A DNA stretch of 60,581 bases, the filler included, from Hausera hauseri (taxonomy: Eukaryota): assembly GCA_046269625.1 (NCBI GenBank). It is 9 parts of 9 records of this genome, joined end to end, with 100 filler letters (N's around TTAATTAATTAA, not from the genome) between each part and the next. Parts side by side here need not be neighbours in the genome. Positions count along the whole stretch, not along the records: positions 14,730 to 19,907 come from JBJURY010315163.1; 8 more parts are not named here. One strand, given 5' to 3'. Every line of letters begins with the position of its first letter. Positions within the stretch are counted from its first letter, which is position 1. Positions 3,001 to 50,073 of this stretch are shown here, one piece after another. The position numbers and the translations under genes were made by a program. The notes beneath the pieces were generated by a model, which was not told the origin of the DNA, did not search any database, and saw nothing but the letters and a program-made list of their open reading frames with translations.

Positions 3001-6000
3001 ACTGGGTCAGTCCAAAATTCTTTTTACTCAACTCATTGTGGTGCGTCCGAATATGCAGCTGTCCGGAAATGGATCAGTCCCTAATTTTTTCAACTCAACA
3101 TATTGGGGTGAGTCCAAATGTGCAGGTGCAGAGATGGGTCAGTTCCAAATTTTTCCGACTCAACTCATTGCGTTGAATCCAAATATGCAGGTTTCCGGAA
3201 TTAGGTCAGTCCAAAATTTTTTCGTCGCAACTTATTGCGATAAGTGCGAATATGCAGGTCTTCGTAACTGGGTCAGTCCAAAACTATTTTTAACTCAACT
3301 CATTGAGGTGCGTCCGAATATGCAGGTGTACGGAACTGGATCAATCCAAAATATTTTCGACTCAACTAATTGCGGTAAGTCCGAGTAGGCAGGTCTCCGT
3401 AACGGGGTCAGTCCAAAATGTTTCCTACTCAACTCATTGCGTTGAGTCCAAATATGCAAGTGTCCGGATCTGGTTCAGTCCAAAATTCTTTCGACTCAAC
3501 TCATTACGGTGAGTCCGAATATGCATGTGTCTCAAACTGGGTCAGTCCATAATTTTTTTCTACTCAACACCATAGGGTGCGGCCGAATATGCAGGTGTCC
3601 AGAACTGGATCAATCCAAAATTTTCTCAACTCAATTCATTGCGGTGAGTCCAAATATGCATGTGTCCGGAACTGGGTCAGTCCAAAATATTTTTCGACTC
3701 AACTCATTGCGGTTAGTCCCAATATGCAGGTGTCCGGAACTGGATCAGTCCAAAATTTTTTTCGACTCAAATCATTGCGGTGTGTCCGAATATACAGGTG
3801 TCCGGAACTGGGTCAGTCCAAAATTTTTTCGACGCAATTTATAGCGAAAATTCCGAATATGCAGGTCTTCGTAATTGGGTCAGTCCAAAATATTTTGTAC
3901 TCAACTCATTGCGTTGAGTCTAAATATGCAGGTGTCCGTAAATGGGTTAGTCCAAAAGTTTTTTCGACTCAACTCACTGCGGTTAGTCCGAATATGCAGG
4001 TGTCCGGAACTGAGTCAGTCCAAAATTTCTCCGACACAACATATTGCGGTGAGTCCGAATATGCTGGTCTCCGGAATTTGGGTAATCAAAATTTTTTCCG
4101 TCTCATCTCATTGCGGTGAGTCCGAAAATGCAGATCTTCGTAACTGGGTCAATCCAAAACTTTTTTTTACTGACCTCATTGAGGTGCGTCCGAATATGCA
4201 GGTGTCCGGAACTGGATCAGTCCCGAATTTTTTCAACTCAACTTATTGCGGTGAGTCCAAATGTGCAGGTCCAGAGATGGGTCAGTCCAAAATTTTTCCA
4301 ACTCAACTCATTGCTGTGAGTCGAAATATGCAGGTCTCCGTAACTGGGTCAGTCCAAAACTTTTTTTTACTCAACTCATTGAGGTGCGTCCGAATATGCA
4401 AGTGTCCGGAACTGGGACAGTCCAAAATTTTTCTACTCAACCCATTGAGGTGCGTCCGAATATGCAGGTCTTCTTAACTGGGTCAGTCCAAAATTTATTT
4501 TACTCAATTCATTGAGGTGCGTCCGAATATGCAGGTCTTCGTAATTGGGTCAGTCCAAAACTTTTTTTACTCAACTCATTGAGGTGCGTCCGAATATGCA
4601 GGTCTTCGTAACTGGGTCAGTCCAAAACTTTTTTTTACTCAACTCATTGAGGTGCGTCCAAATGTGCAGGTGTCCGGAATTGGATCAGTCCAAAATTTTT
4701 CCGAATCAAATAATTGCAGTGAGTCCGAATATGCAGGTCTCCGTAACTGGGTCAGTCCAAAATATTTTCTACTCAACTTATTGCGTTGAGTCCAAATATG
4801 CAAGAGTCCGGAACTGGGTCAGTCCAAAATTTTTCCGACACAACTAGTTGCTGTGAGTCCGAATATGCAGGTCTCCGTAACTGGGTCAGTCCAAAATATT
4901 TTCTACTCAACTTATTGCGTTGAGTCCGAATATGCAGGTGTCCCGAACTGGGTCAGTCCAAAATTTTTTCGACGCAATTTATTGGGATAAGTCCGAATAT
5001 GCAGGTCTTCGTAATTGGGTCAGTCCAAAATGTTTTCTACTCAACTCATTGCGGTGAGTCCGAATATGCAGGTGTCCTGAACTGGGTCAGTCCAAAATTT
5101 TTCCGACTCAACTAGTTGCTGTGAGTCCGAATTTGCAGGTCGCCGTAACTGGGTTAGTCCAAAATGTTTTCTGCTCAACTCATTGCGTTGAGTCCAAATA
5201 TGCAAGTGTCCGGAACTGGGTCATTCCGAAATTTTTTTCGACTCAATTCATTGCGTGGAGTCCAAATGTGCAGGTGTCCGGAATTAGGTCAGTCCAAAAT
5301 TTTTTGCGAATCATCTTATTGCGATGAGTCCTAATATGCAGGTCTCCAGAATTGGGTTAGTCCAAAATTTCTCCGACACAACTTATTGAGGTGAGTCCGA
5401 ATATACAGGTCTCCGGAATTAGGTCAATGCGAAATTTTCTCCGACTCAACTCATTACGGTGAGTCCGAATATGCAGGTGTCCCGAACTGGGTCAGTCCAA
5501 AATTTTTTCGACGCAATTTATTGGGATAAGTCCGAANNNNNNNNNNNNNNNNNNNNNNNNNNNNNNNNNNNNNNNNNNNNNNNNNNNNNNNNNNNNNNNN
5601 NNNNNNNNNNNNNNNNNNNNNNNNNNNNNNNNNNNNTTGCGTGGAGTCCAAATGTGCAGGTGTCCGGAATTAGGTCAGTCCAAAATTTTTTGCGAATCAT
5701 CTTATTGCGATGACTCCTAATATGCAGGTCTCCAAAACTGGGTTAGTCCAAAATTTCTCCGACTCAACACATTACGGTGAGTCCGAATATGCAGGTGTCC
5801 GGAACTGGGTCAGTCCAAAATGTTTTCTACTCAATACATTGCGTTGATTCTAAATATGCAGGTGTCCGTAACTGGGTCAGTCCAAAATATTTTCTACTCA
5901 ACTCATTGCGGTGACTGCAAATGTGCAGGTCCAGAGACGGGTCAGTCCAAAATTTTTCCGACTCAACTCATTGCGATGAGTCCTAATATGCAGGTCTCCA

Positions 6001-9000
6001 GAACTGGGTCAGCCCAAAATTTCTCGGACACAACATATTGCGGTGAGTCCGAATAAGCAAGTCTCCGGAATTTGGTTAATCCAAAATTTTTTTAGACTCA
6101 ACTCATTGCAGTGAGACTGATTATGTAGGTCTCCGGAACTGGGTCAATCCAAAATTTTTTTCGACTCAACTCATTGCGAAAGTCCGAATATGCTGTTCTT
6201 CGTTACTGTGTCAGTCCAAAGTGTTTTCTACTCAACTCATTGCGTTGAGTCTAAATATGCAGGTGTCCGTAACAGGGGCAGTCCAAAATTTTTTCAACTC
6301 AAATCATTGCGGTGAGTCCGAATATGCAGGTCTCCACAACTGGGTCAGTCAATATGTTTTCTACTCAACTCATTGCGTTGAATCCAAATATGCAGGTGTA
6401 CGGAATTAGGTCAATCCAAAATTTTTCCGACTCAACTCATTGCGATGAGTCCTAATATGCAGGTCTCCAGAACTGGGTCAGTCCAAAATTTCTCGGACAC
6501 AACATATTGCGGTGAGTCCAAATATGCAAGTCTCCCGAATTTGGTTAATCCAAAATTTTTTTAGACTCAACTCATTGCAGTGAATCCGATTATGTATGTC
6601 TCCGGAACTGGGTCAATCCAAATTTTTTTCCACTCAACTCATTGCGAAAGTCCGAATATGCATGTCTTCGTTACTGTGTCAGTCCAAAATGTTTTCTACT
6701 CAACTTATTGCGTTGAGTCTAAATATGCAGGTGTCCGTAACAGGGTCAGTCCAAAATTTTTTCAACTTAACTCATTGCGGTGAGTCCGAATATGCAAGTC
6801 TTCGCAACTGGGTCAGTCAAAAATGTTTTCTACTCAACTCATTGCGTTGAATCCAAATATGCAAGTGTCCGGAACTGGGTCAGTCCGAAATTTTTTTCTA
6901 CGCAAATATTTGGTTGAGTTTAAATATGCAGGTGTCCGGAATTAGGTCAGTCAGAAATTTTTTGCGAATCAACTTATTGCGATCAGTCCTAATATGCAGG
7001 TCTTCAGAACTGGGTCAATCCAAAATTTTTTCCGACTAAACTCATTGCGGTGAGTCCGAATATGCAGGTGTCCGGAACTGGATCAGGCCAAAATTTTTTC
7101 GCGACACAACTCAATGCGATACGTCCGAATATGCAGGTTTCCTTAACTGGGTCAGTCCAAAATGTTTGTTTACTCAACCCATTGCGTTGAGTCTAAATAT
7201 GCATGTGTCCGGAAATGGGTCAGTCCTAAATTTTTTTTGACCCATCTCATTGCGTTGAGTCCGAATATGGAGGTGTCCTAAATTGAGTCAGTCCAAATTG
7301 ATTCGACGCAACTTATTGCGATATGTCCGACTATGCAGGTATTCTTAAGTGGGTCACTCCCAAATTATTTTCGACTCAACTCATTGTGTTGATTCCAAAT
7401 TTGCAAATGTCCGGAACTGGGTCAGTCCAATTTTTTTTTTCTACTCAACTCATTGAGGTGTGTCCGAATATGCAGGTGTCCGGAACTGGGTCAGTACAAA
7501 ATTTTCTTCAACTCAACTCATTGGAGTGCGGCCGAATATGCAGGTGTCCGGAACTGGATGAGTCCAAAATTTTTTCAACAAAACTCATTGCGGTGAGTGC
7601 AAATGTGTAGGTCCAGAGATGGGTCAAACCAAAATTTTTCCGACTCAACTGATTGCGAGGAGTCCAAATATGCAGTTCGCCGTAACTGGGTCAATCCAAA
7701 ATGTTTTCTACTCAACTCATTGCGTTGAGTCCAAATATGCACGTGTCCGGAACAAGGTCAGTCCGAAATTTTTTTCGACACAATCCATTGCGTTAAGTCC
7801 AAATGTGCAGGTGTCAGGAATTAGGTCAGTGCAAAATTTTTTGCGAATCAGCTTATTGCGGTGAGTCCGAATATGCAGGTCTCCGGAATAAAGTCAATCC
7901 TAAATGTTTTCCGACTCAACTCATTGCGGTGAGTCCGAATATTCAGGTCTCCGGAATTAGGTCAATCCAAAATTTTTTCCGACTCAACTCATTGCGGTGT
8001 GTGCGAATATGCACGTGTCCGGAGCTGGGTCAATTCAAAAATTTTTTCGACTCAACTCATTGCGAAAGTGCGAATATGCAGGTCTCCGTAACTGGGCCAG
8101 TCCAAAACGTTTTCTACTCAACTCATTGCGTTGAGTCCGAATATGCAGGTGTCCGGATTTAGGTCAATCCAAAAATTTTTCCGACTCAACTCATTGCGGT
8201 GAGTCCGAATATGCAGGTGTCCGGAACTGGGTCAATCCAAAATGTTTTCTACTCAACTCATTGCGTTGAGTCTAAATATGCAGGTGTTCGTAACTGGGTC
8301 AGTCCAAAATTTTTTCGACTCAACTCATTGAGGTGCGCCGAATATGCAGGTGTCCGTAACTGGGTCAGTCCAAAATTTTTTCAACTCAACTCGTTGCGTT
8401 GAATCCAAATATGCATGTGTCCGCAACTTGGTCAGTCCGAAATTTTTTCAACTCAACTCCTTGCGGTGAGTCCAAATGTGCAGATCCAGAGCTGGGTCAG
8501 TCCAAAATATTTTTCCACTCAACTCATTACGGTGTGTCCGAATATGCAGGTGTCCGGAACTGGATCAGTCCAAAATTTTTTCAACTCAACTCATTGCGTT
8601 GAGAACAAATGTGCAGGTCCAGAGCTGGGTCATTCCGAAATATTTTTCGACACAACCCACTGCATTGAGTCCAAATGTGCAGGTGTCCGGAATTAGGTCA
8701 GTCCAAAATTTTTTGCGAATCAGCTTATTGCGATGAGTCCTAATATGCAAGTCCCCAGAACTGGGTCAGTAGAAAATTTCTCCGAAACAACTCATTGCGG
8801 TGAGTCCGAATATGCAGGTCACCGGAATTAGGTCAATCCAAAATTTTTTCCGACTCAACTCATTGCGGTGAGTCCGAATATGCAGGTCTCCGGAACTGGG
8901 TCAATCCAAAACATTTTTCGACTCATCTCATTTTGAAAGTCCGAATATGCAGGTCTCCGTAACTGGGTCAGTCCACAATGTTTTCTACTCAACTCCTTGC

Positions 9001-12000
9001 GTTGAGTTTAAATATGCAGGTGTCCGTAACTGGGTCATTCCAAAATTTTTTCGACTCAACTCATTGAGGTGCGTCCGAATATGCAGGTGTCCGGAACTGG
9101 TTCAGTCCAAAATTTTTTTAACTCAACTCGTTGCGGTAAGTGCAAATGTGCAGGTCCAGAGATGGGCAGTCCAAAATTTTTCCGACCCAACTCATTGCGC
9201 TGAGTCCAAATATGCAGGTCTCCGTAACTGGGTCAGTCCAAAATGTTTTCTACTTAACTCGTTGCGTTGAGTCCGAATATGCATGTGTCCGCAACAGGGT
9301 CAGTCCGAAATTTTTTCAACTCAACTTATTACGGTGTGTCCGAATATGCATGTGTCCGGAACTGGATCACTATAAAATTTTTTCAACTCAACTCATCGCG
9401 TTGAGACCAAATGTGCAGGGCTAGAGCTGGCTCAGTCCAAAATTTTTCGACTTAACTCATTGCGATGAATGCATATGAGCAGGTGTCCGGAAATGGATCA
9501 ATCCAAAATTTTTCCGACTCAACTAATAGCGGTGAGTTCGAATATGCAAGTGTCCGGAACTGGGATAGTCCAAAATTTTTTTCAACTCAACTCATTGCGT
9601 TGAGTGTAAATATGCAAGTGTCAGAAACTGTGTCAGTCCGAAATTTTTTTCTACTCAACACATTGCGGTGAGTCGAAATATGCAGGTCCAGAGCTCGGTC
9701 AGTCCAAAACTTTTCGACTCAACCCATTGCGATGAGTCCACATGAGCAGGTGTCCGGAACTGGATCAGTCCAAAATTTTTCCGACTCAACTCATTGCGTT
9801 GAGTCCAAATGTGCACGTGTCCGGAATTAGGTCAGTCCAAAATTTTTTGCGAAGCAACCTATTGCGATGAGTCCTAATATGCAGGTCTCCAGAACTGGGT
9901 CAGTCCAAAATTTTTGCAACTCAACTCATTGCGGTGAGTCCGAATATGCAGGTCTCCGGAATTAGGTCAATCCAAAATTTTTTCCGACTCAACTCATTGC
10001 GAAAGTGCGAATATGCAGGTCTCCGTAAGTGGGCCAGTCCAAAACGTTTTCTACTCAACTCATTGCGTTGAGTCCGAATATGCAGGTGTCCGGATTTAGG
10101 TCAATCCAAAAATTTTTCCGACTCAACTCATTGCGGTGAGTCCGAATATGCAGGTGTCCGGAACTGGGTCAATCCAAAATGTTTTCTACTCAACTCATTG
10201 CGTTGAGTCTAAATATGCAGGTGTTCGTAACTGGGTCAGTCCAAAATTTTTTCGACTCAACTCATTGAGGTGCGCCGAATATGCAGGTGTCCGTAACTGG
10301 GTCAGTCCAAAATTTTTTCAACTCAACTCGTTGCGTTGAATCCAAATATGCATGTGTCCGCAACTTGGTCAGTCCGAAATTTTTTCAACTCAACTCCTTG
10401 CGGTGAGTCCAAATGTGCAGATCCAGAGCTGGGTCAGTCCAAAATATTTTTCCACTCAACTCATTACGGTGTGTCCGAATATGCAGGTGTCCGGAACTGG
10501 ATCAGTCCAAAATTTTTTCAACTCAACTCATTGCGTTGAGAACAAATGTGCAGGTCCAGAGCTGGGTCATTCCGAAATATTTTTCGACACAACCCACTGC
10601 ATTGAGTCCAAATGTGCAGGTGTCCGGAATTAGGTCAGTCCAAAATTTTTTGCGAATCAGCTTATTGCGATGAGTCCTAATATGCAAGTCCCCAGAACTG
10701 GGTCAGTAGAAAATTTCTCCGAAACAACTCATTGCGGTGAGTCCGAATATGCAGGTCACCGGAATTAGGTCAATCCAAAATTTTTTCCGACTCAACTCAT
10801 TGCGGTGAGTCCGAATATGCAGGTCTCCGGAACTGGGTCAATCCAAAATATTTTTCGACTCAACTCATTGCGAAAGTGCGAATATGCAGGTCTCCGTAAC
10901 TGGGCCAGTCCAAAATGTTTTCTACTCAACTCATTGCGTTGAATCCGAATGTGCAGGTGTCCGGAAATAGGTCAGTTCAAAGTTTTTTGCGAATCAACTA
11001 AATTCGATGAGTTCTTATATGCAGGCCTCCAGAACTTTGTCAGTCCAAAATTTCTCCGACACAACTCATTGCGGTGTGTGAGAATATGCACGTGTCCGGA
11101 GCTGGGTGAATTCAAAATTTTTTTCGACTCAACTCATTGCGGTGTGTGAGAATATGCACGTGTCCGGAGCTGGGTGAATTCAAAATATTTTTTGACTCAA
11201 CTCATTGCCGTGAGTTTGAATATGCAGGTCTCAGTAATTAGGTCAATCCAAATTTTTTCCGACTCAACTCATTGCGCTGAGTCCGAATATGCAGGTCTCC
11301 GTAAATGGGTCGGTCCAAAATGTTTTTTACTCTACTCATTGCGTGGAGTCTAAATATGCAGGTGTCCGTAAGTGGGTCAGTACAAAATTTTTTCGACTCA
11401 ACTCATTGCGTTGAGTGTAAATATGCAAGTGTCAGAAACTGTGTCAGTCCGAAACTTTTTTCTACTCAACACATTGCGGTGAGTCGAAATATGCAGGTCC
11501 AGAGCTGGGTCAGTCCAAAGTTTTTCGACTCAACTCATTCCGTGAGTCCAAATGTGCAGGTGTCCGGAATTAAGTCAGTCCAAAATTTTTTGCGAATCAA
11601 TTTATTGCGATGAGTCCTAATATGCATGTCTCCATAACTGGGTCAGTCCAAAATTTCTCCGACACAACTCATTGCGGTGAGTCCGAATATGCAGGTCTCC
11701 GGATTTAGGTTAATCCAAAAATTTTTCCGACTCAACTCATTGCGCTGAGTCCGAATATGCATGTGTCTGGAACTAGGTCAGTCCAAAATTTTTTTCGACT
11801 CAACTCATTGCGAAAGTCCGAATATGCAGGTCTCCGTAACTGGGTCAGTACAAAATGTTTTCTACTCAACTCATGGCGTCGACTCTAAATATGCAGGTGT
11901 CCGTAACTGGGAAAGTACAAAATTTTTTTCTACTCAACTCATTGCTTTGAGTCCAAATGTGCAGGCGTCCGGAATTAGGTCAGTCCAAAATTTTTTGCGA

Positions 12001-14629
12001 ATCAATTTATTGCGATGAGTCCTAATATGCAGGTCTCCAGAACTGGGTCAGTCCAAAATTTCTCCGACACAACATATTGCAGTGAGTCCAAATATGCAGG
12101 TCTCCGGAATATGGTTAAACCAAAATTTCTTCCGACTCAACTCATTGTGGTGAGTCCAAATATGCAAGTGTCCGGAACTGGGTTAGTCTGAAATTTTTTT
12201 CGACTCAACTCATTGCGGTGAGTCAAAATAAGCAAGTGTCCTAAACTGGGTCAGTCAAAAATTTTCTTCTACTCAACCCATTGAGATGCGACCGAATTAG
12301 CAGCTGTCCGTAACTGGGTCGGTACAAAATGTTTTCTACTCAACACATTGCGTTCAGTCCAAATATGCATGTGTCCGGAACGGGGTCAGTCCAAAATTTT
12401 TTCGACTCAACTCATTGCGTTGAGTCTAAATATCCAAGTGTCCAGAACAGGGTCAGTCCAAAATTTTTTTGAATCAATTTTTTGCGATCAGTCCTAATAT
12501 GCAGGTCTCCAGAACAGGGTCAGAGTAAAATTTCTCCGACACAACTCATTGCGGAGAGTCCGAATATGCAGGTGTCCGGAACTGGGTCAGTCCAAAATTT
12601 TTTCCGACACAACTCATTACGATCATTCCTAATATGCAGGTCTCCGGAATTTGGTTAATCCAAAATTTTTTCCGACACAAATCATTGCGGTGAGTCCGAA
12701 TATGCAGGTGTTCGTAACTGGATCAGTGCAAAATGTTTTCGCCTCAACTCATTGCGTTGAGTCCAAATATGCAGGTGTCCGGAACTGTGTCAGTCCAAAA
12801 TTTTCTTCTACTCAACTCACTGAGATGCGTCCGAATATGCAGGTGTCCGGAACTGGCTCATTCCAAAATTTTTTAGACGCAAATTATTGCGATAAGTCCA
12901 ATTATGCAGGTGTTCGTAACTGGATCAGTGCAAAATGTTTTCGCCTCAACTCATTGCGGTGAGTCCAAATATGCATTTGTCCGGAACTGGATCAGTCCCG
13001 AATTTTTTCAACTCAACTTATTGCGTTGAGTCTAAATATCCAAGTGTCCAAAACAGGGTCAGTCCAATATTTCTCCGACGCAACTCATTACGGTGTGTCC
13101 GAATATGCAGGTGTCCGGAACTGAGTCAATCCAAAATTTTTTTCTACTCAACTCATTGAGGTGCGTCCGAATATGCAGATGTCCGGAACTGGATCAGTCC
13201 AAAATTTTTTCAATTCAACTCATTGCAGGGAGTGCAAATGTGCAGGTCCAGAGCTGGTTCAGTCCAAAATTTTTCGCCTAAGCACACTGCGAATAGTGCA
13301 TATATGCTGGTGTCCAGAATTTGATCAGTACAAATTTTTCCGACACAGATAATTGCGGTGAGTCCGAATATGCAGGTGTACGTAACTGGGTCAGTCCAAA
13401 GTGTTTTCTACTCAGCTCATTGCGCTGAGTCCAAATATGCAGGTGTCCGTAACTGGGTCAGTCCACAATTGCTCCGACACAACACATTGCGGTGCGTCCG
13501 AATATGCAGGTCTCCGGAATTTGGTTAATCCAAAATTTTTTCCGACACAAAACTTTGCGGTGAGTCCGAATTTGTACTTGTCCGGAACTGGCTCACTCCA
13601 AAATTTTTTCGACGCAACATATTGCGATAAGTCCGACTATGCAGGTGTTCGTAACTGCGTCAGTCGAAAATTTTTCGACTCAACTCATTGCGTTGAGTCC
13701 GAATATGCAGGTGTCCGAAACTGGATCAGTCCAAAATTTTTTCAACTCAACTCATTGCAGTGAATGCAAATGTGCAGGTCCAGAGATGGGTCAGTCCAAA
13801 ATTTTTCCGACTCAACTCATTGCGCTGAGTCCAAATATGCAGGTCTCCGTAACTGGGTCAGTCCAAAAGTTTTTGCGAATCAATATATTGCGATGAGTCC
13901 TAATATGCAGGTCTCCAGAACTGGGTCAGTCCAAAATTTCTCCTACACAACTCATTGCGATAAGTCCGAATATGCAGGTCTCCGCAACTGGGTCATTCCA
14001 AAATACTTTCTGCTCAGCTCATTGCGTTGAGTCTAAATATGAAAGTGTCCGGAACTGGGGCAGTCCGAAATTTTTTTCGAATCAACTCATTGCGTTAAGT
14101 CCGAATATGCAGGCCTCCGTAACTGGGTCAGTCCAAAATGTTTCCTACTCAACTCATTGCGTTGAGTCCAATTATGCAGGTGTCCGGAACTGCATCAGTC
14201 CAAAATGTTTCCTACTCAACTCATTGCGTTGAATCCAAATATGCAGGTGTCCGTAACTGCATCAGTCCAAAATTTTTCCGACTCAACTAATTGCGGTGAG
14301 TGCGAATATGCAGGCCTCCGTAACTGGGTCAGTCCAAAATGTTTTCTACTCAACTCATTGCGTTGAATCAAAATATGCAGGTGTCCTGAACTGGGTCATT
14401 CCAAAATTTTATCTACTCAACTCATTGCTTTGAGTCTAAATATGCAAGTGTCCGTAACTGAGTCAGTCCAAAATTTTTTCGACTCAACCCATTGCTTTGA
14501 GTCTAAATATGCAGGTGTCCGTAACTGGGTCAGTCCAAAACTTTTCGATTCCAATCATTGCGGTGAGTCCGAATATGCAGGTTTCCGGAACTGGGTCATT
14601 CCAAAATTTTTTCGACGCAACTTATAGCG
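1..14629 (+). repeat. Satellite DNA array, ~67-bp monomer (66-68 bp), roughly 215 copies
   Basis: Continuous head-to-tail repeats of approximate consensus gtccgaatatgcaggtgtccggaactgggtcagtccaaaattttttcgactcaactcattgcggtga (67 bp). Runs to the scaffold end. Contains a 100-N gap at 5537-5636. Confidence 0.98.
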
Positions 14630-14729
14630 NNNNNNNNNNNNNNNNNNNNNNNNNNNNNNNNNNNNNNNNNNNNTTAATTAATTAANNNNNNNNNNNNNNN
14701 NNNNNNNNNNNNNNNNNNNNNNNNNNNNN
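14630..14729. other. Artificial scaffold linker N44-TTAATTAATTAA-N44
   Basis: Exactly 100 bp. The central 12-mer (14674-14685) has stops in all six frames. The same structure recurs 8 times. Confidence 0.97.
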
Positions 14730-15135
14730 AAGAAAATTTACATCCAACCAGTAATGACAATTTTGCCTGTTCACTTTTCCATTTAGAAAGAATTGTGACT
14801 CATCAGAAAAGACTATTAATCTATTATACTGATTATCATGTTTAATATTAATTAGCATTACATTAAAAAAATCAAGGCGATTGGCATAATCTTCTTCATT
14901 CAACTCCTGAGAGGTAAAGATTTTAAATGGATGGAACTTGTTTTTTTTAATCCTAACAATGTACGACTGACTGACACCTGTTTCACTTGCTGCTAATCTT
15001 GTGGAGATTTGGGGATTTGTAACAAAGGTGGCTAAATTGCTGTACTTATAACTTCATCTGTGGAAGTTCTTGCCCTCCCAGAACATTTTTTGTCTGCAAC
15101 ATTTTCATCTCGATATCTGCATACTTTTCCTCCGT
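14730..15135 (-). mobile_element. Tc1/mariner-superfamily transposase fragment (DUF4817-type HTH region to first catalytic Asp), decayed
   Basis: Minus strand reads VADKKCSGRARTST...NPQISTRLAASETGVSQS...KFHPFKIFTSQELNEEDYANRLDF...IVFSDESQFFLNGKVNRQNCHYW. This matches the SGRPRT and FSDE-x-F-x-LNG-x-VNRQN-x-R-x-W signatures. Has an internal stop and is cut by the scaffold end. Confidence 0.88.
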
Positions 15136-15564
15136 TGTGGTATGTATGGAGCGGGGATCGGTGCCAAGCCCGTAAAAGTTGCAACGGAAAATGGCAGACG
15201 AAAAATACGCAACTTTGAATGCAAAGCACCGATGACGCGCTCGGAAATATTAAAATTCTTGTCTAATGATAATAAGGAAAAAGATTGAGCGTCTATTTGT
15301 GTCATAGGGACCAAAAGACACGATGAAATTAATATGACAGAAAATGAAAAATTCAGAAGGAACCTGTATGGGATGACAAGGATTAAAATGATAGAAGAAA
15401 TAAGTCAAAAGAATCTGAATGGTATTAGGGAATGGTCGTCAGAAGGGAATTGAAGAAAAGAGAAGTTAAACCATCTGAAGAAAGGCGTCACAGTGGAACA
15501 AAGTAAACTGAGAAAATTAAACGGCAAAGTTATGAGAGAAAATTCTGTCCCCCCAGTGAAACAA

Positions 15565-15786
15565 ATGGAGAAACAAATAATTGTACGTTGTAGTGGACGT
15601 CACTACGTGATAGAGTCAATATAATTACAATCCTACCATGCTCTAATCGATCAAGTGAAGAAGTATCTAAGGATTAACGGTGAGTTTACGTTACCGTATA
15701 TCGGAAAACCACTGCGCACAGACGATGAAGTGAAGAATCTGAAGTACGGCTCAACAATTCACATAATGTTTCAGTTAAAAGGAGGA
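15565..15786 (+). pseudogene. Ubiquitin-like domain ending in di-Gly, in frame with BEL/Pao Gag
   Basis: Frame-1 translation MEKQIIVRCSGRHYVIESI*LQSYHALIDQVKKYLRINGEFTLPYIGKPLRTDDEVKNLKYGSTIHIMFQLKGG (74 codons, one stop at 15622). Aligns by eye to ubiquitin QIFVK...LIFAGKQL...STLHLVLRLRGG. Confidence 0.8.
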
Positions 15787-16897
15787 AGCGAACTGACTGC
15801 GGAGGATCTTGAAGAACGTATTGCCTAATGACGAAGACATATAAACGAATTAGCCTTTATTAGAAGGAGATTGATGGACACAAATTTGAGTGAACATGAC
15901 TACGACGTATTATACCAAAGTTACGAAAAGATTTTCTTAAATGACCAAGAAGAACTGCCTTTACTGACAACAGCAGCTAGAACATTAAAAACAAAAGAAA
16001 ACGTAACACTACTGGAGAACGAAATGGAGAAGTTAGACGAACAAAACGAGAAGATCAACACGATAATTTACTAGCGGAGCCTGTGAGATAACAAAATGGT
16101 CGCCAATGTAACATAAAAAACAGTGAATGACAAAGTGAAAGAGAAAGTAATCCTGCCGAAACTACAAAGCCTAGAGTTGCCAAAATTTGGTGGTGCAGTC
16201 TTCGAATACAACCGTTGGAGAAAAACTTTCGGTACGTGTGTGGATAAAACATTAATTTCTACCATATGCAAACAATTGCAGTTGGAAAGGTGCTTATATG
16301 GCGAGCCGAAAATGCTGACAGAAAACTTAGAATTATCGGAAGAAGGGTATAAGGCATCACTGGAAAAATTAGATTCTTACTACGGTGGTGAACAGCGCTC
16401 CTACGCGACGCTTATGACCGGAAGTCGTAAGGATCCGGGCAATAGACGAAGGAGACATTATCGGGCTAGACGAGTTAATATCACTTTTAGATGTAATAAT
16501 AGTGAGATTGAGAAATCCAGGGTGAACAGAGGAACTTGGGGAGGTTTATTGTACCAAAAACTTATGGAGAAACTCCCAGAATCAATCGTGTTACTGTGGG
16601 AAAGGCACGTCGTCGAGAAAAAGGCGAACAGGACCGTTGAAGAATTGAAGAATTGGATAGAAATAGAAGCGATGGTCAGGAGAAATGCCATAGAAAGAGT
16701 AAGAAAAATAGATGCGTTTAATACAAGTTAAGGTGGTCGATATTCGTCGTTAGGAGATGGTCGGTCGTATTTCACAAAGAAATCACAGTCGATAAAAAAG
16801 GGTTCGCGAATCCCAGTTTCAGAAAAATGATCAAGAGGTTAAAAAAGGGATACAGGCTAGCAGCACCAATTCAGAGCAAGAGGTCCGATCCCAAATA

Positions 16898-17043
16898 TGT
16901 TGGAACTACTATAAAAATGGTCAATGCAGGTTTGGGAATAATTGCAAATATTCACATGAACCTAGAAAAATGATCAGAGATGGTTATATAGGTTCTTTAT
17001 AAATGGGGGATGTAGGTATGGTGATGACTGTAAATTCCTACAT
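16898..17043 (+). pseudogene. Tandem CCCH-type zinc fingers in BEL/Pao Gag C-terminal region
   Basis: 16898-16957 CWNYYKNGQCRFGNNCKYSH is C-x8-C-x5-C-x3-H. 16987-17043 YRFFINGGCRYGDDCKFLH is (C>Y)-x7-C-x5-C-x3-H and lies in frame with the downstream protease ORF at 17095. One frameshift separates the fingers. Confidence 0.85.
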
Positions 17044-19907
17044 GAAAAAATTAGAAATAAGGAAAATAATAAAAATGGTTATAATAGAAGGAGAATGGAG
17101 AGCGAAACTGAAAATTCCTGTGCAAATATGGTAGGCACGGCACCAGAGGAGTCAGTGACACGGACGTTAAACAATAAAGAAGAAGGGGTACAAAATAAAC
17201 AAAAACGTGTCAGAACCTACGTAACCCAAGGTTCTCAGGGGGCAGACGAAAAAGAAGAAATGGTAGCTCTGAGGACAATGGAAGTATGGCTAAAGAATGG
17301 ACATAAAATGAGGAAAGCAATAATGCTGCTAGACAAATCTAGTAGGGAGAGTTTCGTAGATTCAAAAGTGTGTGAAGAGTTAGAGGTTGGTAGAAGACAG
17401 AGAGGCTGACGATAACAGTTGTCGGAGGAAAACAAACTGAGATATCCATTGGTAGGGTCAAAATGGAATTGATAAGTCTGGATCGATCGACGGAGGTCAA
17501 ATTCGCAGCGTTGGCCATGAGAAACCCAACCGGAAGGATGAGGGCAGTGAACTGGTCTATATAAATACAGAGGTAACCCCATCTAAAGAACATAAAATTC
17601 CCTACGATGTCCCACAGGTTAGAAGTGGATGGTATTATTGGGGCGAATCATATGGAATTATACCGATCAATTAAGGTATACGGCAAAAAGTGTGTGCCAG
17701 TGACGCGGTTAACTCTGTTGGGCTGGACTTGTGTTGGATAAATAAAGAAGGGAAAAAAGAACGTGAACAGCAATTTCGTAAGAACCTTTTTGACAAGGAC
17801 CGAAGAACTTCAAAATGACTTGAATTAATTGTGGGAGGTCGAAATATAGTCAAAGGAATCTCAATGAAGTATACTAAACGAGAAGATCATAAAGCAGGTA
17901 ATAGAAGAAACAACTTATGAGGAGAATAGGTACTGTGTGCCGTTACCATAAAAATGAGAAAGACAACCTAAAATGGAAAGTAACGGATGGATGGCACAAA
18001 ACGGTTAGATACTCTACGGAATAAGTTGGATAAAGATGGGAAGGTAAAGGCAGCCTACGAGAAGGTAATAGAAGCGCATACGAAGGAAAGATATATCCGA
18101 GTGGTGGAAGAACGAGCAGAACAGGAAACAGCTTGGCTGTTACCACATTTCCCGGTCATGAAAATTGACAGGGAAATAACAAAATGCCGAATAGATTTCG
18201 ATGCTGCTTCAAGATATCGGGGAAGTGTCTGAACGACTTTCTCAACCCCGGTCCAAAATTACAACTGGATATTATAGACATACTACTGAGGATGAGAAAA
18301 CGCCCATGGGTCGTCATATGTGACATCCAAGAAATGTTCTTGCAGATTAAGGTAAAGCAAGAGGATAACAAATATCTGAGATTCCTATGGTATAAGGATG
18401 AAAAACTCAAGACATACGAGTTCAATAGGTTGGTATTTGGGCTGAATGCCTCTCCGTTTATGGCGCAACTGATCTCAATGCATAAGGCCGAAAAGTTTAA
18501 AGAGAAATTCCCTAGAGATGTGGAAACAATAGAGTGCTCTACATACATGGATGACTTCATTGATTCAGTCAGTACCAAAAAGGAAGCTGTTTCACTATAC
18601 AATGAGCTAAATGAAATCTGAAAAAAGGCTGGGATGGAGCCACAGAAGTGGGTATCAAACTCCAATGAATTACTAAATTTAATACCTACTACAAGTCGAG
18701 CAAAGAAATTTAGTATAGTTGAAAAAACGGACGTTGTCACCAAGACGCTGGGGATGAAATGGAAAATCGAAGATGATACATTTGGATTTGAGAATCGCGA
18801 CAAGCAAGGGATAGAAATAACGAAAAGAACACTATGAAGTGTTCTAGCGAAGGTATTCGATCCGTTAGGCTTTCTTAATTGCTACACATTGTTGGGTAAA
18901 GTATACTTACAACAACTGTGGATGATGAATGTGGATTGGGACGAGAAGATCCCAAAGGAATAAAATGAGAAAATAAGAACATGGGTAAAAGGAATGGAGA
19001 GGTTGAGTGTAGTGAAAATACCAAGGTATTTACAATTCCAAGAGAACGGCGACAGTAAGATACATATATTTTGTGACATCTCAAGATGGGAATACGGGAC
19101 GGTAGCATATTTAAGAAATACAGTGGGAGACGAAATGAAGGTAGTAATTATATATTCGAAAGGTAAGGTGACACCAGTAAAGTCTGTAGCTATACCCGGC
19201 TGCAGTTGATGGCAGCCTGCATAGGGGTCAATCTGGAGAGGAAAGTGAGAAAGACCTTGTGCAACAATAAGGAAGACGTACAATATAGGACGGACAGTAT
19301 GAACGTACTGTACTGGATCAAAGGCTGTAGTAAGTATTACAAGACGTTTGTTGCGAATAGAGTCGGATACATCAACGAGGAATCAGCCGGAACACAATGG
19401 AGCTACGTGAAATCAGAACAAAACCCAGCAGACTACATGTCTAGGGGGTTAGACATCGAGGAACTAAAAAACAAAACAGAGTGGTGAAACGGTCCGGAGT
19501 TTCTTAAAAAGACGGAAGAACAATGGCCAAGTCAGCCCAGTGAGTTACCAAAGCCAAAGGACGAGGAAAGAAGAAAGGATGCGTTTACGTTGATGTCTTT
19601 GAGAAACATTGCGCCAGAAGGAGAAAATCGAAATCAGGAAGATGTAAACGACACGCAACAATATGTCGAGTCTCGTTGAGAGGAAATGGTCAGACGAAAG
19701 GTAGAAGAAATTGCGCAAACAGACGAAAATAATAATAGAACGAACCGAAATTGAGAAGGAATGCAAATTTAGAAATAATAAAGGAGGTCCAAGGAAAGAA
19801 GTTTTTTACAGAAATGAAAAATATACAATCTATTAAGCAAATTGACGTTAAAAGTGCCATCGCGAAGTCCAATCTCATTCTAAATGATGAAGGGGTATTG
19901 AAATCAA

Positions 19908-20007: not shown

Positions 20008-22668
<2,661 letters not shown>

Positions 22669-23233: not shown

Positions 23234-26200
23234 TGACAAAGGTGAAAACTACAAGGATGAAGATCAAGACGTAGACTTTGTGGTTTGACTATTCTGTTTT
23301 GGTATGGACCAGACCTTGTATCCCTTCAATGTATCTCTCTTTACTGTACTTGCTAAAAGTGACAGTTTTGCGATGTCTTTGTTTTTGTCTCTAGTTGTTA
23401 AGGTGTTTCGGGGGGGGGAATGTCACATTCTGTCGCGTTGAGTGCAGTGTCTTGCTGAGGCAAAATAGGCAAAGGAAAAGGAGTAATTGAAGGTAAATAT
23501 TTGAAATTGTCGAAGGGAGTTCCCAAAGATAAGGTGTTGGAGGGAAAAGTAGTAACTGGTAAAGAGGCGGGAGAAGTAAATGAAGTAGTGGTAGGGGTAG
23601 GATTAGTAGTTGTAGTGGATGTGTGAACAGAAACAGGAACAGAAGAAACTGGAGTAGGAGTAGAGACAGGAGTAGAGGCAGAAGGGAATGCAGGAGTCAG
23701 AAAATTTGTCGAAACTTCAGTTGGAGAGGTGTCATCTACAAGAAGGGCATGTTTCACATTATTTACATGGACTGCTATTTCCTTACCGTCTTTGAGAATT
23801 ATAGTGTTGTGGGAATGTAGTTGAATTAGCTTATAGGGCCCTAGATACTGCGGTTGAAAACCAAAGGGTGTTTGATTTCGTAGCCAAACGAACTGTGCAG
23901 AATACAAGTCGTCGGGTAAATACGTTTTATTGTTGTGTAGTATTCTACAAAACGAGTCTTTACTGACCGCGACAAAATGATCCTGTGCTGCTCTGATCTT
24001 TTCGTCTGTAGGCGTATTATCTAGGGCGGTCAATTCGAACAAGGAGCGAACCGGTGTTCCAAATAAGGCTTCGGTAGGTGAGCATCCTGTAGAAGTGGAC
24101 GGAGTGTTTCACCAGCCGAGCAGTACGAACGGTAGAAGTGTGGTCCAATTGGTGTTTGACTGCGCAAGGATCCGAAGTTATGTTTTCAAGGTTCGGTGGA
24201 AACGTTCGAGCAGGCAATTTGATTGAGGATGATAGGGTGTAGTATGAATATGATTTATACCTAATCGGTTGACTAATGATCTGAACAGATTTGATTCGAA
24301 TTGAGAGCCATGATCCGAGATGATGTAATGAGGGGATCCGAATCTACTAATCCACGTACGAATAAAAGTATCAGCTATTGTATCAGTATTTGTGCTCCGT
24401 AGTGGAATGGCTTCTGGCCATCGTGAGGCACGGTCCATCATGGTCAGAATAAATTGGTGGACGTTGTCTATTTGGAGAGGACCAACGATATCAATATGCA
24501 CAGTTTCAAAGCGTGATGTGCATGGAGAGTGGCATAATGGAGGTTTTAGGTGTTTTATTGTTTTATATATCTGACAAGGCACACATGTTTTAACCCATGC
24601 TTGCACATCGGAGCGCATGGTTGGCAACACTACTTGTCGTTGAAGTAGACGAAAGGTTGCTTTGGCTCCAGGATAATGTAACGAATGTACATTACGAAAT
24701 GCCTGTTTGTGTAAGGATGGAGCAAGAATTATCCAGGACTGTCCTGGTTTCGAGGTATCTAAGGCCACGTCATCAACTATCTGATGAAATGGGTGAAAAT
24801 TGGCGAAAAGTTGATCGAACCGACTGATCTAGATAAGAAATCAGCAACTAGGTTGTCCACACCCTCAATATGTTTGATATCGAAGTTGAAAGTTGATAAA
24901 TATGAAATTTGCCGTTCTTGTCGAGTGGAAGGATGCTTCATTGTCATTATATTAATCAGTGGCTTGTGATCAGTCTGTATAACAAAATGGCGTGCCGTAA
25001 GTAAATGTGAAAAATGTTTTAAAGCGAGGACTATTGCTAACAGTTCCCGGTCAAAAGTTGAGTATCTTGTTCCTGGTGGAGTTAATTTTCTAGAAAAGAA
25101 TTCTAGAGGCTGATTTTCTCTATTGTATAGCTGGTGTAGTACAGCTCCTACTGCAGTGTTTGATGCATCTGTAGTTAAAATTAACTCAGCGTCTGGTTTA
25201 AGGAATGCAGGTATTTCCACAATCTTTAACCCTTCACGTAACCCGTCAAAATCATTCACTAGTTGTGGCGTCCACATGATTTTCTGATGTTTTTTTCCTC
25301 CAATGAAGTGAACGAAAGGTGCTATAAGTTCCAAACAGTACGGAATATACTTGTGGGCGAAATGTAAGGTACCAAGAAAACTGCGCATTTCTGTGGTTTT
25401 CTTAGGTAGTTGGACATTTTTAAGAGTCTCAACTCGATCAGGTTGAGGTGAATGGCCCTCTGGTGAGATAATATGTCCGAGGAAATTAACACGTTTTTTA
25501 AAGAAATTACATTTCGAAAAATTGATTTGTAGATTAAACTGGTTAAGACGTTTGAATATAGATTGTAGATGTTCTTCGTGCTGTTTAACTGATGATGAGG
25601 CAACTAAGATTTCGTCAATATAGGGATGTGCAAAAGTGAAGTCTGAAAGTATTGAATCGATATGTCTTTGAAACGTCTGCGCAGCATTCCGGAGATTAAA
25701 AGGCATATACAAGTACTCGTAAAGTTTAAAAGGTGTGGTGACTGCTGTTTCCTCGATGTCTTCCGGTGCTACAGGAATTTGGTGGTAAGCCTTAGTTAAA
25801 TCGATCGTCAAATAAATTGAGGTAGTATTGAGTCGATGTAATATGTCCTTGACTAATGGTAATGGATATGCGTCCATTGTTGTTAACGTATTAAGTTGAC
25901 GATAATCGCCACATGGTCGGAAAGATCCATCTTTTTTGTACAACATGGAGAGGTAAAGACCATGGTAATTTAGATCTGCGGACGATACCTGATTGTTCTA
26001 GTTCCATAAATTCAGCTTCTACTGCCTGTTTGCGTCGCGGTGGCAATGGACGGACCTTTTGTCTAATTGACCTTTGATGTCTTGTAATTATTTGGTGTAA
26101 ATGCTATTTACTGGAGTGAAATTCCTATCTTTCTGAAGTATCCGAGGACAAAAGGCATGAACAAATTGTTGTAGACTTGAGGGTAATTGTTGGAATGTTG

Positions 26201-27073
26201 AACTGATGATGAACCGAAATTGCTAGCAGTACTTGGTATATGAATAGTTTTTATGAGGAATCAAGTGGAGCGTGAAGTAGGATTGCCTGGTCCGGAACTG
26301 TGTTTGAGCAAGTGTTAGTGTTCAGTGATTTTACAGAAAATACTAGATTGTTATTGTGAGCAGAACGAAGTACCGAGTGTTTTAAAACAGATGGCTTATT
26401 TAACGTGGACTGTGTTGTCGTTGTGATGCTGTCTATTTTTGTATTAAGGTTTTCAAATGTATTTGCTTTCAAACAGCGTCGTTTACAATCAACTAGTAAA
26501 TTGTAATTTGAAAGGAAATCTGAGCCAAGTATTGCAGTCTGGACGTTAGCGACTGTAAACGTTTAATGAAATGACGAGGACAAATTTTGTAGAGTGAAAG
26601 AAAGTTTGCAGGTTCCGGCGACACGAAGAGTTTTACCAGATGCAGTGTATAAAGGTTTTATTTTAGATGAAACATGTTGAACCGGAAAAGAAAATGGAAG
26701 CAGTGATATCGCTGCACCAGTATCGATGAGAAAATCTATGGATTGGATATTTGGATTGGAGATAGTAGCTTTTAATGTGAAAACGGCAAATAAAACGTGT
26801 CGGCTAAAAAAATTAGATAGGTTGCCATTGCCAGTATCTGCCGAGAATACTGGTGGCGAAATCAGTGTTTTTGGATTGGTGAATTAGAACGGCTGCTATA
26901 AGAGATGTTGGTACGTCTATCGATGGAATAGTTATTTTAGTTTTGTATGTACGGCCAGAAATACAATTCCGAACATTAGGACCGAATTTTGAATAGTAGA
27001 CGCAAATTATATTACTTGAATCTAGATTTGGCGAATAATATTTACACCCTAAGCAACACTTATTTGCGTTGTT
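22735..27073 (-). mobile_element. Ty3/Gypsy LTR retrotransposon (lineage 1, copy 1): Gag C-terminus, PR, RT, RNase H, integrase, PPT, probable 3' LTR
   Basis: FLIDTGAAISLL (~26730); RT RPCGDYRQLN...MPFNLRNAAQTFQR...YIDEIL; RNase H LTTDASNTAVGAVL...DRELLA...TDHKPL...ADFLSR (24777-25946); integrase HSLHYPG...CVPCQ...VHIDIVGPL...ERFHRTLK (24178-24768); GPY module (23398-24042). Confidence 0.96.
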
Positions 27074-28619: not shown

Positions 28620-31600
28620 TTTGTTAATCGAGCATAAATTATAGCGTTTATTTAGCCTTATTTCCGTTTTAACAAATTTTAGTACTGACGCAACTTCTTC
28701 TTTACAATTTTTGTTAATATAGACTGTAGTTGGTGTAGTTTCGTAGTTCGTATGGTCATCTTCCAGTACGAGTAAATTTCAAAGATGTGTCTTTTTTGGC
28801 TACTAGTTACTGTATGTAAATCCAATTTCCTTGTTCTAAGTCGTGCGGCTTGGCCTTTTTTATCGCACTTCTTCTTTAACTGTTCTTGATATACTTAAGA
28901 TAACTCTTTTTCTATTTCCCAACACTTTTGTAATCTTGTCTGCAATACTTTGATGAAATTCTGTTTTAAATCTTCAGGATTTAACATACACGGTGTCATT
29001 CCTAAATCCGTTGGTAATTTGGCTTGTCTTCTATTCATCATGAAAATGGTGTAAATCCAGTTGCGGAATGTGGCGTGGCATTTATAGCAAATTGAGTACC
29101 TTCTAAAACTTTACCACAATCCTTCTGATCTTTTGCGACTACTGTTGACAAAATTCGTATAACCGTTGCGTTTATTCGTTGAACTATCCAGTTACGTTGA
29201 GGATGATAGACTGTCGTAGTTAAACGTTCTACCTCAAATATTTTGATAATTTGGTGAAATAATTCACTTGTAAAATTCCTTCCTGGATACGTCAAAATCT
29301 GTTCAGGTGGACTATATCTACAAGTAATTTTTCTTACTACGGCTTCTGCAAGGGTCTCAGCTTTTTGATTGATTAATGCTATTAATTCCACAAAGTGAGT
29401 TAGTCTGTCAATACATGTCAGAATGTATTTATTACTTTTGTGAGTTGCAGGTAATGATCCTACAATATCCATGAACACTGCTAGCATCGGCTTATCCGGT
29501 TCAGCAATATAGTTTCGCACTTTTCTTTGTTTATTAACGCATGCTTCACAAGCGTTTACCCATTTTTTCACATCAATATAAATGCGTGGCTAGTAATATT
29601 TGTTTAATATTCTTTCTAATGTCTTTTTCCAAGACATGTGTCCAGCTACGTACGAGTCATGTTTGACTATTAGCACTTCAGTTCGTAAACCTTTTTGTAT
29701 AACTACCAATTTTCGTCCTTTACGTTCGTAATTTAAAACATTTCCGTGACTTGATACACAATATTTATGATCGTGTCTGTATAAATGTTTTCTTAACTGG
29801 TGGACTTTTCCTGCAAATTCAATAATTTCTTGGATAACTCTATCCTTCTTCTGTTCTATCGAAATCATAATTGCTTTACCCATCGTTAAAGCTCGTTGTC
29901 TATCTACTAACTCTTCGGATTGAGTTTTCTCATTACAGAAACTGCGTTTGTTTTAGTTTTTATTCTAGATAGTACATCGGCATCGACATCTTTACTTCCG
30001 GGCTTATATTGGAATTCGATATTATATCGTGAAATTTTATCAATCTATCTATTGAGTATACACGTCGCATTATTCGCTTTTCCTTTTAAAGCCATAACGG
30101 CATTATGATCAGTAACAATTATAATTTTTTGTCCGTAGACGTAAACGTTGAAATATCGTAGAGCTTCTTTTACAGCTACCGTTTCTAACTCTGACTGAAT
30201 AATTTTTCTCGGCTTTCTTCAGTGATTGTTCGCCATAGGCGATTGGGTGTTCTAATTCCTCATCGTCACGTTCCTGGGCTAATTCGTATTCAATGCCTTC
30301 TGTACTTTCATCCATGTTAATTATCAGTGACAGATTAAATTCAAGATATTTTAAAACAAGTTTGCTTGTTAGAATTTTCTTCACTTCATCGGAAGCTTTT
30401 TGTTCGACATGTGTCCATTTCCATTTAATTCCTTTTTAGAAGGCGATACAATGGTTCATTTATTTTCGAATTATCTGGTACGTATGTAGAGTAGCATCCA
30501 CACAAGCCTAACCAATGTCTCAACTCTTTTTGGTTCTGTGGTTCTATACAGTTCGATATTTTGTTTAACAATGACTTATCTGGTTTCGGTCCTCCTTCTC
30601 TAATTATATATCCAAGATAAGTCAATGCATATTGAGCCCATTTTCGTTTCTTAGAATTCAACTTCAATCCTGCTTGGTCCAATCTCATGAGCGTATATTC
30701 AAGATCTTTTAAGTTTTCCTCTTCCGTCCTTGACGCGATCGTTACGTCGTCCAAATATGCAAATGCGTGCTCCAGTCCCATCAGCATTCTGTTCATCATT
30801 CGAGTCAAAATAGCCGGTCCGGCTGTTATCCCGAATGGCATAACGTTAAATTCGTATACGCCATCATGAATTAAAATGCTGTTTTATAGCAGTCTTTAGC
30901 CTCTATCTGTATCTGTCAATATCCGAATTGCAAGTCTAGTGTGGTAAACCATTTTGCTCTGGACAGTCTATCCAGGTCTTCTTTTACTGATGGTAATGGA
31001 AAAGAGTCTTTCATCATAAGGGTATTCAACGCTCAATAATCGATGTTTTGTGGAACCTTTTTTTCTAACCATGAGTATAGGTGAACAACAAGGTCTATAA
31101 CTTGTCTAATTATGTCGGCCTTAAGCATTTGTTCAATTTCCATTGTTATTCCAGGTCTAATGAGTGCGGCGGAGGATACCATTTCGGCATCTTTTGTTCT
31201 TCAAGATCGATTTCATTATTTAAACCAAGCTTTTTCTTAAGTGGAATCGTTAACCTCAGAGCTTTAGCTCTGCCAATATTTTCTTAGTCTTTAGAAATAA
31301 TTGATTTATAACGACACAGGGGATTGTAAAAGCGACAATATGATTCTTGTGAGAACCTAGTTTCAACATTAGGTGAAAATTCGGCATATTTATAAGGTTT
31401 TTCCTCAATAGTGATCGACGATACTTTATACGTGTGACCCAAAGTAGTGTTAGAGTAAAATTGTATTTAGGTTGGCGCATTGTCAGTTATTCTGATCGGT
31501 ACACGACCTATTGATAATCTAGTTAATATATTACTGAGCACGATACTCGGGTTTAACTTTTCTTTTAGTTCGAAATATACTGGGTCATTGTCGTCTTGGC

Positions 31601-49973: not shown

Positions 49974-50073
49974 NNNNNNNNNNNNNNNNNNNNNNNNNNN
50001 NNNNNNNNNNNNNNNNNTTAATTAATTAANNNNNNNNNNNNNNNNNNNNNNNNNNNNNNNNNNNNNNNNNNNN
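49974..50073. other. Artificial scaffold linker
   Basis: N44-TTAATTAATTAA(50018-50029)-N44. Confidence 0.97.

Follow-up and report, generated by a model that had tools for sequence, protein, structure and literature searches.

The question raised by this locus is why the Gag protein of a retrotransposon should contain a ubiquitin-like (Ubl) domain ending in Gly-Gly in the middle of its reading frame. The locus lies within a 60,581-nucleotide stretch of Hausera hauseri DNA (assembly GCA_046269625.1; the whole stretch is referred to as the window), on a Gag-Pol-carrying contig at positions 14730-19907, which is limited by assembly gaps at 14729 and 19908. The element, which is encoded on the plus strand, is assigned to BEL/Pao by the homology of its DUF1759 capsid, its reverse transcriptase (RT) and its Peptidase_A17/RNase H region. 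The explanation favoured here, with moderate confidence, is that a captured ubiquitin serves as a spacer that is cleaved by the host and thereby would free Gag from a variable leader.

The Gag frame of the window copy opens with an in-frame leader of 141 codons counted from an ATG (15142..15564). The leader contains two stops (15286 and 15451), compared to 16 and 11 stops in the other two frames and a mean of 10.8 in shuffled sequences (P=0.001), which bears out the initial annotation, according to which the frame is nearly open for about 130 codons upstream of the domain. The leader is charged and mostly of low confidence in the structural model, and its true 5' end may be lost. It is followed by the ubiquitin-fold domain, which comprises 74 codons in frame 1 (15565..15786) with one stop at 15622 and ends with Leu-Lys-Gly-Gly, the Gly-Gly being located at 15781-15786. 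After the Gly-Gly, frame 1 runs in frame into SELTAEDLEERIA, as had been described. The helical N-terminal part of Gag (15787..16116) begins with Ser-Glu-Leu just after the di-Gly and carries five stops (15826, 15829, 16072, 16084 and 16114); its core has a predicted local distance difference test (pLDDT) score of 85-90, and 65 of 104 residues are identical to P0156, a relative that is introduced below. The di-Gly and the BEL/Pao capsid (DUF1759; 16156..16707; PF03564, E 7e-7) are separated by 124 residues. Comparison with relatives revealed that the homologous frame of the capsid is frame 2 at about 16412-16540 and then frame 1 again; therefore, the stop-free open reading frame at 16117-16731 conceals a pair of frameshifts. 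The six stops listed in the initial annotation are all in place, and the two stops of the leader have to be added. Its statement that only point stops interrupt the frame holds up to about 16410, but fails within the capsid due to the frameshift pair.

From sequence alone, the likeness of the 15565-15786 domain to ubiquitin is weak and barely visible. No Pfam family matches the domain at E<=1, and the cut-off of the ubiquitin family PF00240, which had been proposed as a check, is not reached. In the PDB, a sequence search matched ubiquitin or RUB1 at the C-terminus only, with an E value of 1.1 for the single-domain chain. A single-sequence AlphaFold2 model of the domain (pLDDT 64) shows the order strand-strand-helix-strands, and Foldseek ranks chains of ISG15, ubiquitin and NEDD8 highest for this model (best TMq 0.80, E 1.8e-4); VIA-align yielded a Z score of 10.0 and a root-mean-square deviation of 2.1 with 73 of 74 residues aligned. 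In a second model, which was based on a 10-row alignment, the domain reached a pLDDT of 81-88 by ten-residue block and was followed by a helical bundle. Most of the leader is uncertain in this model and the Gly-Gly tail is flexible; tail residues 213-216 form the sole stretch with a pLDDT below 50 between the two folded parts, resembling an exposed linker. These folds are predictions, and the model may be biased to a well-known fold. A profile of the ubiquitin parts of six relatives, from which the window was excluded, assigned 10.9 bits to the window domain, a score matched by one of 2000 full shuffles and one of 2000 tail-keeping shuffles. When the whole window was scanned in six frames with that profile, the domain ranked first, weakly (E 0.035). 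Judged by the models, the domain clearly has a ubiquitin fold. The Ubl domain described in the initial annotation is thus supported by a predicted beta-grasp fold (TM 0.80, Z 10.0) and an above-shuffle profile score, and the lack of a beta-grasp, which would have spoken against it, was not encountered.

The same layout recurs in other Gag proteins. A full HMMER search with 15541-16728 as the query gave 361 proteins at E<=1e-3, the best 150 of which were examined; the relatives are metagenome-type protein records. Local phmmer detected a ubiquitin part in 6 of these best 150 of 361 matches. PF00240 and PF03564 occur together in P0006, P0007, P0009, P0015 and P0026 (17 proteins were scanned with Pfam). 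P0066 starts inside the ubiquitin domain, and P0003, which is 59% identical to the window, starts inside the last strand of the domain. A profile search that was flooded by ubiquitin proteins (7998 candidates, 8 matches) led to one new relative, P0156. This uninterrupted protein of 640 amino acids consists of a leader, the Ubl domain, Gly-Gly and Gag and is 58% identical to the window over 393 columns; its Ubl domain shares 33 of 73 residues with the window domain and has no PF00240 match in Pfam. The distance from the di-Gly to the capsid start is 109-126 residues in the eight rows measured, and LxGG is found at the junction position in 7 of 8 ubiquitin rows versus 2 of 61 other rows. The capsids of the nine Gag sequences are mostly 21-27% identical to that of the window. 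At the nucleotide level, a contig of run X1 covers 15617-16328 with around 82% identity (129 letters differ and 2 are gaps), and run X2, which derives from another organism, has a contig that crosses the junction without gaps (15617-15836); the 5' part of the leader is also covered by contigs of both runs (rows at 15223 and 15239).

Further searches for members were mostly blank. A word-based protein search with residues 140-345 found none among 475 candidates; however, P0003 was missed despite being in the length range, so this blank means little. A further word-based protein search returned only P0156 and P0003 and no new members. A junction-pattern scan of contigs gave 115 viral loci, none of which had a Gag match in tblastn, a scan with the capsid patterns of the clade gave 597 stretches, none of which was confirmed, and a second junction-pattern scan gave 18 metagenome loci without Gag, which are stand-alone ubiquitin-like genes or chance matches. 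A hidden Ubl was also sought in the 54 other Gag rows with at least 150 residues before the capsid; the highest score, 8 bits, came from a helical stretch of P0148 and all other rows stayed below 5 bits, in a scan that could miss very divergent domains. Taken by sequence comparison, the ubiquitin-Gag layout is a family trait and not a one-off. The worry that sibling copies might lack the segment is refuted by eight other Gags with the same junction and spacing, and the assignment of the Ubl to the Gag frame applies to the whole lineage, as exemplified by the stop-free P0156.

The relatives also reveal what was captured and which parts of it were kept. In the rows that contain most of the domain, the identity to a reference ubiquitin (locus L002) is 76, 68, 57, 49, 47, 24 and 21%, with the window clade at 21-24%. 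Since relatives are up to 76% identical to ubiquitin, the captured unit was ubiquitin itself. The capture of a Ubl that had been proposed initially is therefore retained in a refined form: the source is ubiquitin, and the domain is internal, behind a variable leader. Ubiquitin residues are retained at a mean of 48% per position. Leu73 and Gly76 are present in all nine rows and Gly75 in eight of nine, in agreement with the expected conservation of the di-Gly, and core or turn residues such as Gly10, Leu50 and Thr66 are almost always retained. On the interaction surface, Ile44 is kept in 1/7, Val70 in 1/9, Arg72 in 4/9 and Arg74 in 3/9 rows (Lys in five more), and none of Arg42, Ile44 and Arg72 is present in the window or P0156. 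The residue that follows the di-Gly is Ser in six rows and Gly, Met or Asn in one row each, never Pro, and acidic residues usually come next; a Gag that begins at Ser, as had been suggested, would thus be the usual case (6/9). Cleavage without conjugation predicts such a pattern, with a retained tail and a drifting binding surface. The features of a cleavable (type I) Ubl precursor are present, namely the predicted beta-grasp fold and, in eight of nine rows, a di-Gly with an in-frame extension, and those of a conjugated modifier (Arg42, Ile44 patch, Arg72) are absent from the window and P0156.

Upstream of the domain, the frame is open in the window, P0156 (160 amino acids), P0006 (at least 78 amino acids) and P0026 (149 amino acids). 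In five of the six pairwise comparisons, these leaders scored no better than shuffles, and the sixth pair was borderline (48/1000); furthermore, the window leader had no match to a known protein. The domain sits behind a variable in-frame leader, a position suggestive of a spacer role. A reading of the leader as a second, decayed ubiquitin unit was rejected, as the leader gave neither a profile nor a pairwise signal and no such fold appeared in the model. In P0026, a fragment of HSP90 (76-141; E 1e-11) is located just upstream of the ubiquitin part. Three members of the same branch carry fused host-like fragments: CFAP58 in P0003 (701-1000), CCDC149 in P0017 (371-529) and HSP90 in P0026. P0017 was called by JGI on a contig of 2153 bases; P0003 and P0026 are ENA calls and possibly chimeric predictions.

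The history of the capture was followed in two trees. For the first tree, 133 of 151 rows with a capsid match were kept (at least 130 profile positions) and 18 were dropped; all 8 ubiquitin rows were placed outside a 99%-supported clade of 111 ubiquitin-less rows. In the second tree of 50 chosen rows, that clade (99/99) and a distant group (100/100) flank nine ubiquitin rows and three rows truncated at the N-terminus; support within these 12 rows is weak, and the ubiquitin label needs two changes. Grouping the 12 rows as one is not rejected (approximately unbiased test, p-AU 0.47), bearing in mind that the group was defined after the first tree had been seen. Ile at position 67 in 6 of 8 ubiquitin rows fits a single capture, and this Ile is shared by some viral ubiquitins. 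One old capture of ubiquitin is thus possible from the sequences at hand.

In the proposed mechanism, an ancestral element would have acquired the coding unit of a host ubiquitin, probably through a template switch to an mRNA that had been packaged. The domain then diverged, down to 21-24% identity in the window clade, with Leu73 and both glycines staying in place. A host protease of the ubiquitin-specific protease (USP) or ubiquitin C-terminal hydrolase (UCH) type would cut the polyprotein after Gly-Gly, thereby giving the released Gag a defined N-terminus, in most cases Ser with acidic residues after it. As a consequence, the 5' end of the frame could change freely or hold fragments captured from the host, leaving the capsid protein unchanged. 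The ubiquitin unit may additionally aid expression, as in ubiquitin-ribosomal protein fusions. A wider version of this proposal is put forward only tentatively and is rather doubtful: one old Flow-type BEL/Pao branch may have ceded the first Gag cut to host deubiquitinases, the 5' part of gag may be an exchangeable cargo slot for captured pieces of host genes, and the window clade may combine a private, Pfam-invisible Ubl that is read by a particular host protease with a switch to RNA-binding CCCH fingers.

Several observations weigh against the cleaved spacer. The main doubt is the divergence of the window clade, whose domain is, at 21-24%, farther from ubiquitin than FUBI is and has lost the Ile44 patch. 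This patch is read by USPs, and recognition of the domain by a general deubiquitinase may therefore be lost. The junction of P0015 is Glu-Gly, which may reflect a decayed copy. Furthermore, the nine rows were recruited by similarity to a di-Gly-containing query, which favours retention of the di-Gly, the window, P0156 and P0003 are close kin among them, and run X1 is possibly the source of the window itself. The cargo idea rests on one HSP90 fragment in what is possibly a chimeric ENA call, and the window leader matches nothing known.

The strongest of the alternatives, in itself unlikely, is that the domain stays in place as an uncleaved UBL module for Gag folding, trafficking or proteasome contact, comparable to those of RAD23, DSK2 and midnolin, and that the di-Gly is a leftover. 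The window clade has lost the Ile44 patch, Arg42 and Arg72, which speaks for this alternative, and VIA-align ranks the integral UBLs of OASL, midnolin and Dsk2 level with ubiquitin. However, integral UBL domains usually lose the di-Gly, and the flexible tail is among the best-retained parts of the domain; P0154, a divergent poly-ubiquitin-like protein, has lost the di-Gly in two of its first three repeats. It is also conceivable, with rather low probability, that the domain is cleaved for better expression or folding of Gag, that translation starts at a Met just before the domain and that the leader is incidental. A Met is indeed present at the domain start in the window (15565) and P0006, and the leaders are not conserved in sequence; however, this Met is absent in P0156, P0009, P0026 and P0015, the window leader is strongly stop-poor and the P0156 leader is open for 160 codons.

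Less can be said for the released leader-Ubl as an effector in its own right, whether joined to host proteins or serving as a decoy towards ubiquitin receptors or deubiquitinases; this is judged improbable. Cleavage would expose a free di-Gly, and P0006 retains the ubiquitin tail at 76% identity. However, Arg42, the Ile44 patch and Arg72 are the surfaces for E1 and receptors, with Arg72 being read by the ubiquitin E1 and the Ile44 patch also being treated in PMC10611586, and conjugation would predict their conservation; Arg72 is kept in only 4/9 rows and lost in the window clade, and Ile44 is kept in 1/7. Conjugation of the released domain is thus unlikely, and the conjugatable decoy considered in the initial annotation is not upheld for the clade of the window, in which all three residues are replaced. 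Cleavage of the junction by the aspartic protease of the element or another non-deubiquitinase protease is highly improbable, since it accounts for neither the kept ubiquitin fold nor the invariant Leu-x-Gly-Gly, and retroviral-type proteases prefer hydrophobic junctions. In its favour, the element encodes a protease, and LTR (long terminal repeat) retrotransposons are taken to rely on an enzyme of their own for polyprotein processing in the profile of the international committee for virus taxonomy (ICTV; PMC8742986). An isolated insertion, a resemblance by chance or an artefact of the assembly, for which the missing Pfam match and the lack of further members in two word-based searches of proteins and three scans of contigs might speak, deserves hardly any credence, as eight relatives have the same junction and spacing, contigs of two organisms bridge the junction, and P0156 and P0006 refute it.

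Cleavable ubiquitin units are known from other systems. In cytopathic bovine viral diarrhoea virus (BVDV), a whole ubiquitin was likewise captured in a polyprotein, where it is placed for host hydrolases to free the downstream protein. Processing of pestivirus ubiquitin inserts by cellular hydrolases requires a whole monomer (PMC5381556), and the inserts are often mosaic (PMC13517609, PMC5381556). However, BVDV inserts are recent, independent and found in single isolates, whereas the unit of the window lineage is apparently ancient, extends across capsids of about 25% identity and has diverged down to 21% in one clade. The host genes UBA52, RPS27A and FAU share the ubiquitin fold, the di-Gly and an in-frame downstream protein, but their domain is located at the very N-terminus, in contrast to the internal domain of a mobile element behind a leader. 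FUBI, with 36% identity to ubiquitin, is a substrate of USP36 and USP16 and depends on its di-Gly for cleavage (PMC10611586, PMC8354635), and its altered Ile44 patch limits which enzymes recognise it (PMC10611586). In its proposed mode of action, the ubiquitin unit of the window element would resemble both a pestivirus insert and a ribosomal ubiquitin fusion, although it belongs to neither kind. In giant viruses and baculoviruses, ubiquitin is followed by varied in-frame extensions, as is the case in most of the 115 loci (L001-L115) of the junction-pattern scan mentioned above; these are near-canonical ubiquitins of DNA viruses, none of them with a Gag match.

A likely route of capture for the window lineage is LTR-mediated retroposition. 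In the part of the study by Tan et al. (2016, PMC5131818) that was accessible, LTR elements, including a Pao element, capture pieces of host mRNAs by template switching, with multi-gene mosaics in the Pao element. However, these chimeras are mostly non-autonomous passengers; the word ubiquitin does not occur in the paper, and its accessible part describes no cleavable spacer. The term ubiquitin is absent from the ICTV Belpaoviridae profile (PMC8742986) and from the accessible text of the BEL/Pao papers PMC3118150, PMC6238403, PMC8556966, PMC2774666 and PMC554778. A description of ubiquitin in the Gag of BEL/Pao or other retrotransposons was not found in the portion of the literature covered, and annotation in Repbase, Dfam or GyDB is still possible; the ubiquitin-Gag layout in BEL/Pao is thus apparently undescribed in the literature searched. 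A PHD finger, which the initial annotation attributed to some BEL/Pao Gags, did not occur in the part of the BEL/Pao literature that was covered by a term search. As the domains of the window and P0156 escape Pfam, the trait is probably under-counted.

The remainder of the element fits BEL/Pao (Belpaoviridae), with which the window shares the DUF1759 capsid, the protease, an RT with YMDD and the Peptidase_A17/RNase H region in the same order. It differs in the leader, the ubiquitin-fold domain and the di-Gly ahead of Gag, and in two CCCH-type zinc fingers instead of the Cys-His box. The fingers span 16898..17043 (16898-16957 in frame 2 and 16987-17043 in frame 1; PF18044, E 6e-9 and 1.7e-6), and the first ligand of the second finger is missing in the window copy. 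The triple Cys-His box, which is typical of BEL/Pao Gag though not universal, was not found in the element. Among the stored proteins, CCCH fingers occur only in P0003 (two) and P0153 (one), whereas the BEL-type motif was detected in 73 rows, and the ubiquitin-bearing relative P0007 keeps the BEL-type box. Since Tas, a named BEL/Pao member, also lacks the triple Cys-His box according to the accessible part of PMC554778, the missing box is not taken as excluding BEL/Pao. Downstream of the fingers are the aspartic protease region (17263..17843, with an LLD motif at 17326 and an IIG motif at 17634; blastx to P0003 and P0085) and the RT (18137..18678; YMDD at 18544-18555; PF00078, E 3e-12; blastx), both of which are frameshifted and contain stops, followed by the Pao Peptidase_A17/RNase H region (18838..19583; PF05380, E 4e-28; blastx). 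The order gag, protease, RT and RNase H corresponds to that of BEL/Pao (blastx; Gypsy/BEL order). With stops and frameshifts in gag and pol, the window copy is dead.

The contig stops at the gap at 19908, upstream of any visible integrase or 3' LTR. Nowhere else in the window is any part of 14730-19907 repeated, and no LTR is in view; at the places expected for LTRs, the 5' flank consists of a transposase remnant and the 3' flank of a gap. For a comparison of primer-binding sites, neither a tRNA gene nor an Rfam match was found, and a possible primer-binding site near 15433 is an unconfirmed candidate picked by eye. The transposase-like remnant (14730-15135, minus strand), which adjoins the 5' end of the element, has only a weak helix-turn-helix match in Pfam (E 0.046). 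Judged by its motifs, it appears to resemble a Tc1/mariner-type transposase.

Within BEL/Pao, the element probably belongs to the Flow superfamily, as suggested by a by-eye comparison of RT sequences. The closest RTs in the supplement of PMC3118150 are, again by eye, NC-63 and NC-703 of Schmidtea mediterranea, which are filed there under a superfamily named 'New' that we read as Flow, judging from the species. The RT of the window is about 60% identical to NC-63 (a by-eye count across some 187 positions), and long RT matches to stored proteins have 28-52% identity. In the part of the work by de la Chaux and Wagner (2011, PMC3118150) that was available, Flow has a mean similarity of 45% within the superfamily and 30-37% to other superfamilies.

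The window contains further features outside this element. A stop-free frame on the minus strand (56840-57298) encodes a hydrophobic strand that ends with Leu-Arg-Gly-Gly and is followed by Ser-Asp; it is located upstream of an apparent Gypsy-type gag (about 55966-56900; labelled by eye). On ubiquitin profiles, this frame scored no better than shuffles, and Atlas gave a weak PCNA-like lead (0.91). Another stop-free frame of 420 codons on the minus strand (20664-21926) encodes WD40 repeats and is possibly a retroposed host gene. Satellite arrays with 67-68-base units are present at 1-14630 and about 50070-53360, the second being inverted relative to the first. Other decayed retroelements lie at 23400-27070, 29000-30900, 32684-35245, 43900-48000 and 54600-57300; they include LTR types (RT, RNase H, integrase; copies about 75% alike) and an RT frame of 853 codons that appears by eye to be like a long interspersed nuclear element (LINE).

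If the captured ubiquitin is a host-cleaved spacer, the lineage would represent a stable, inherited form of a trick that is known from sporadic pestivirus mutants. The spacer would explain how host gene fragments can be carried in frame with gag, leaving the capsid unharmed, and a host deubiquitinase would be a control point for transposition.
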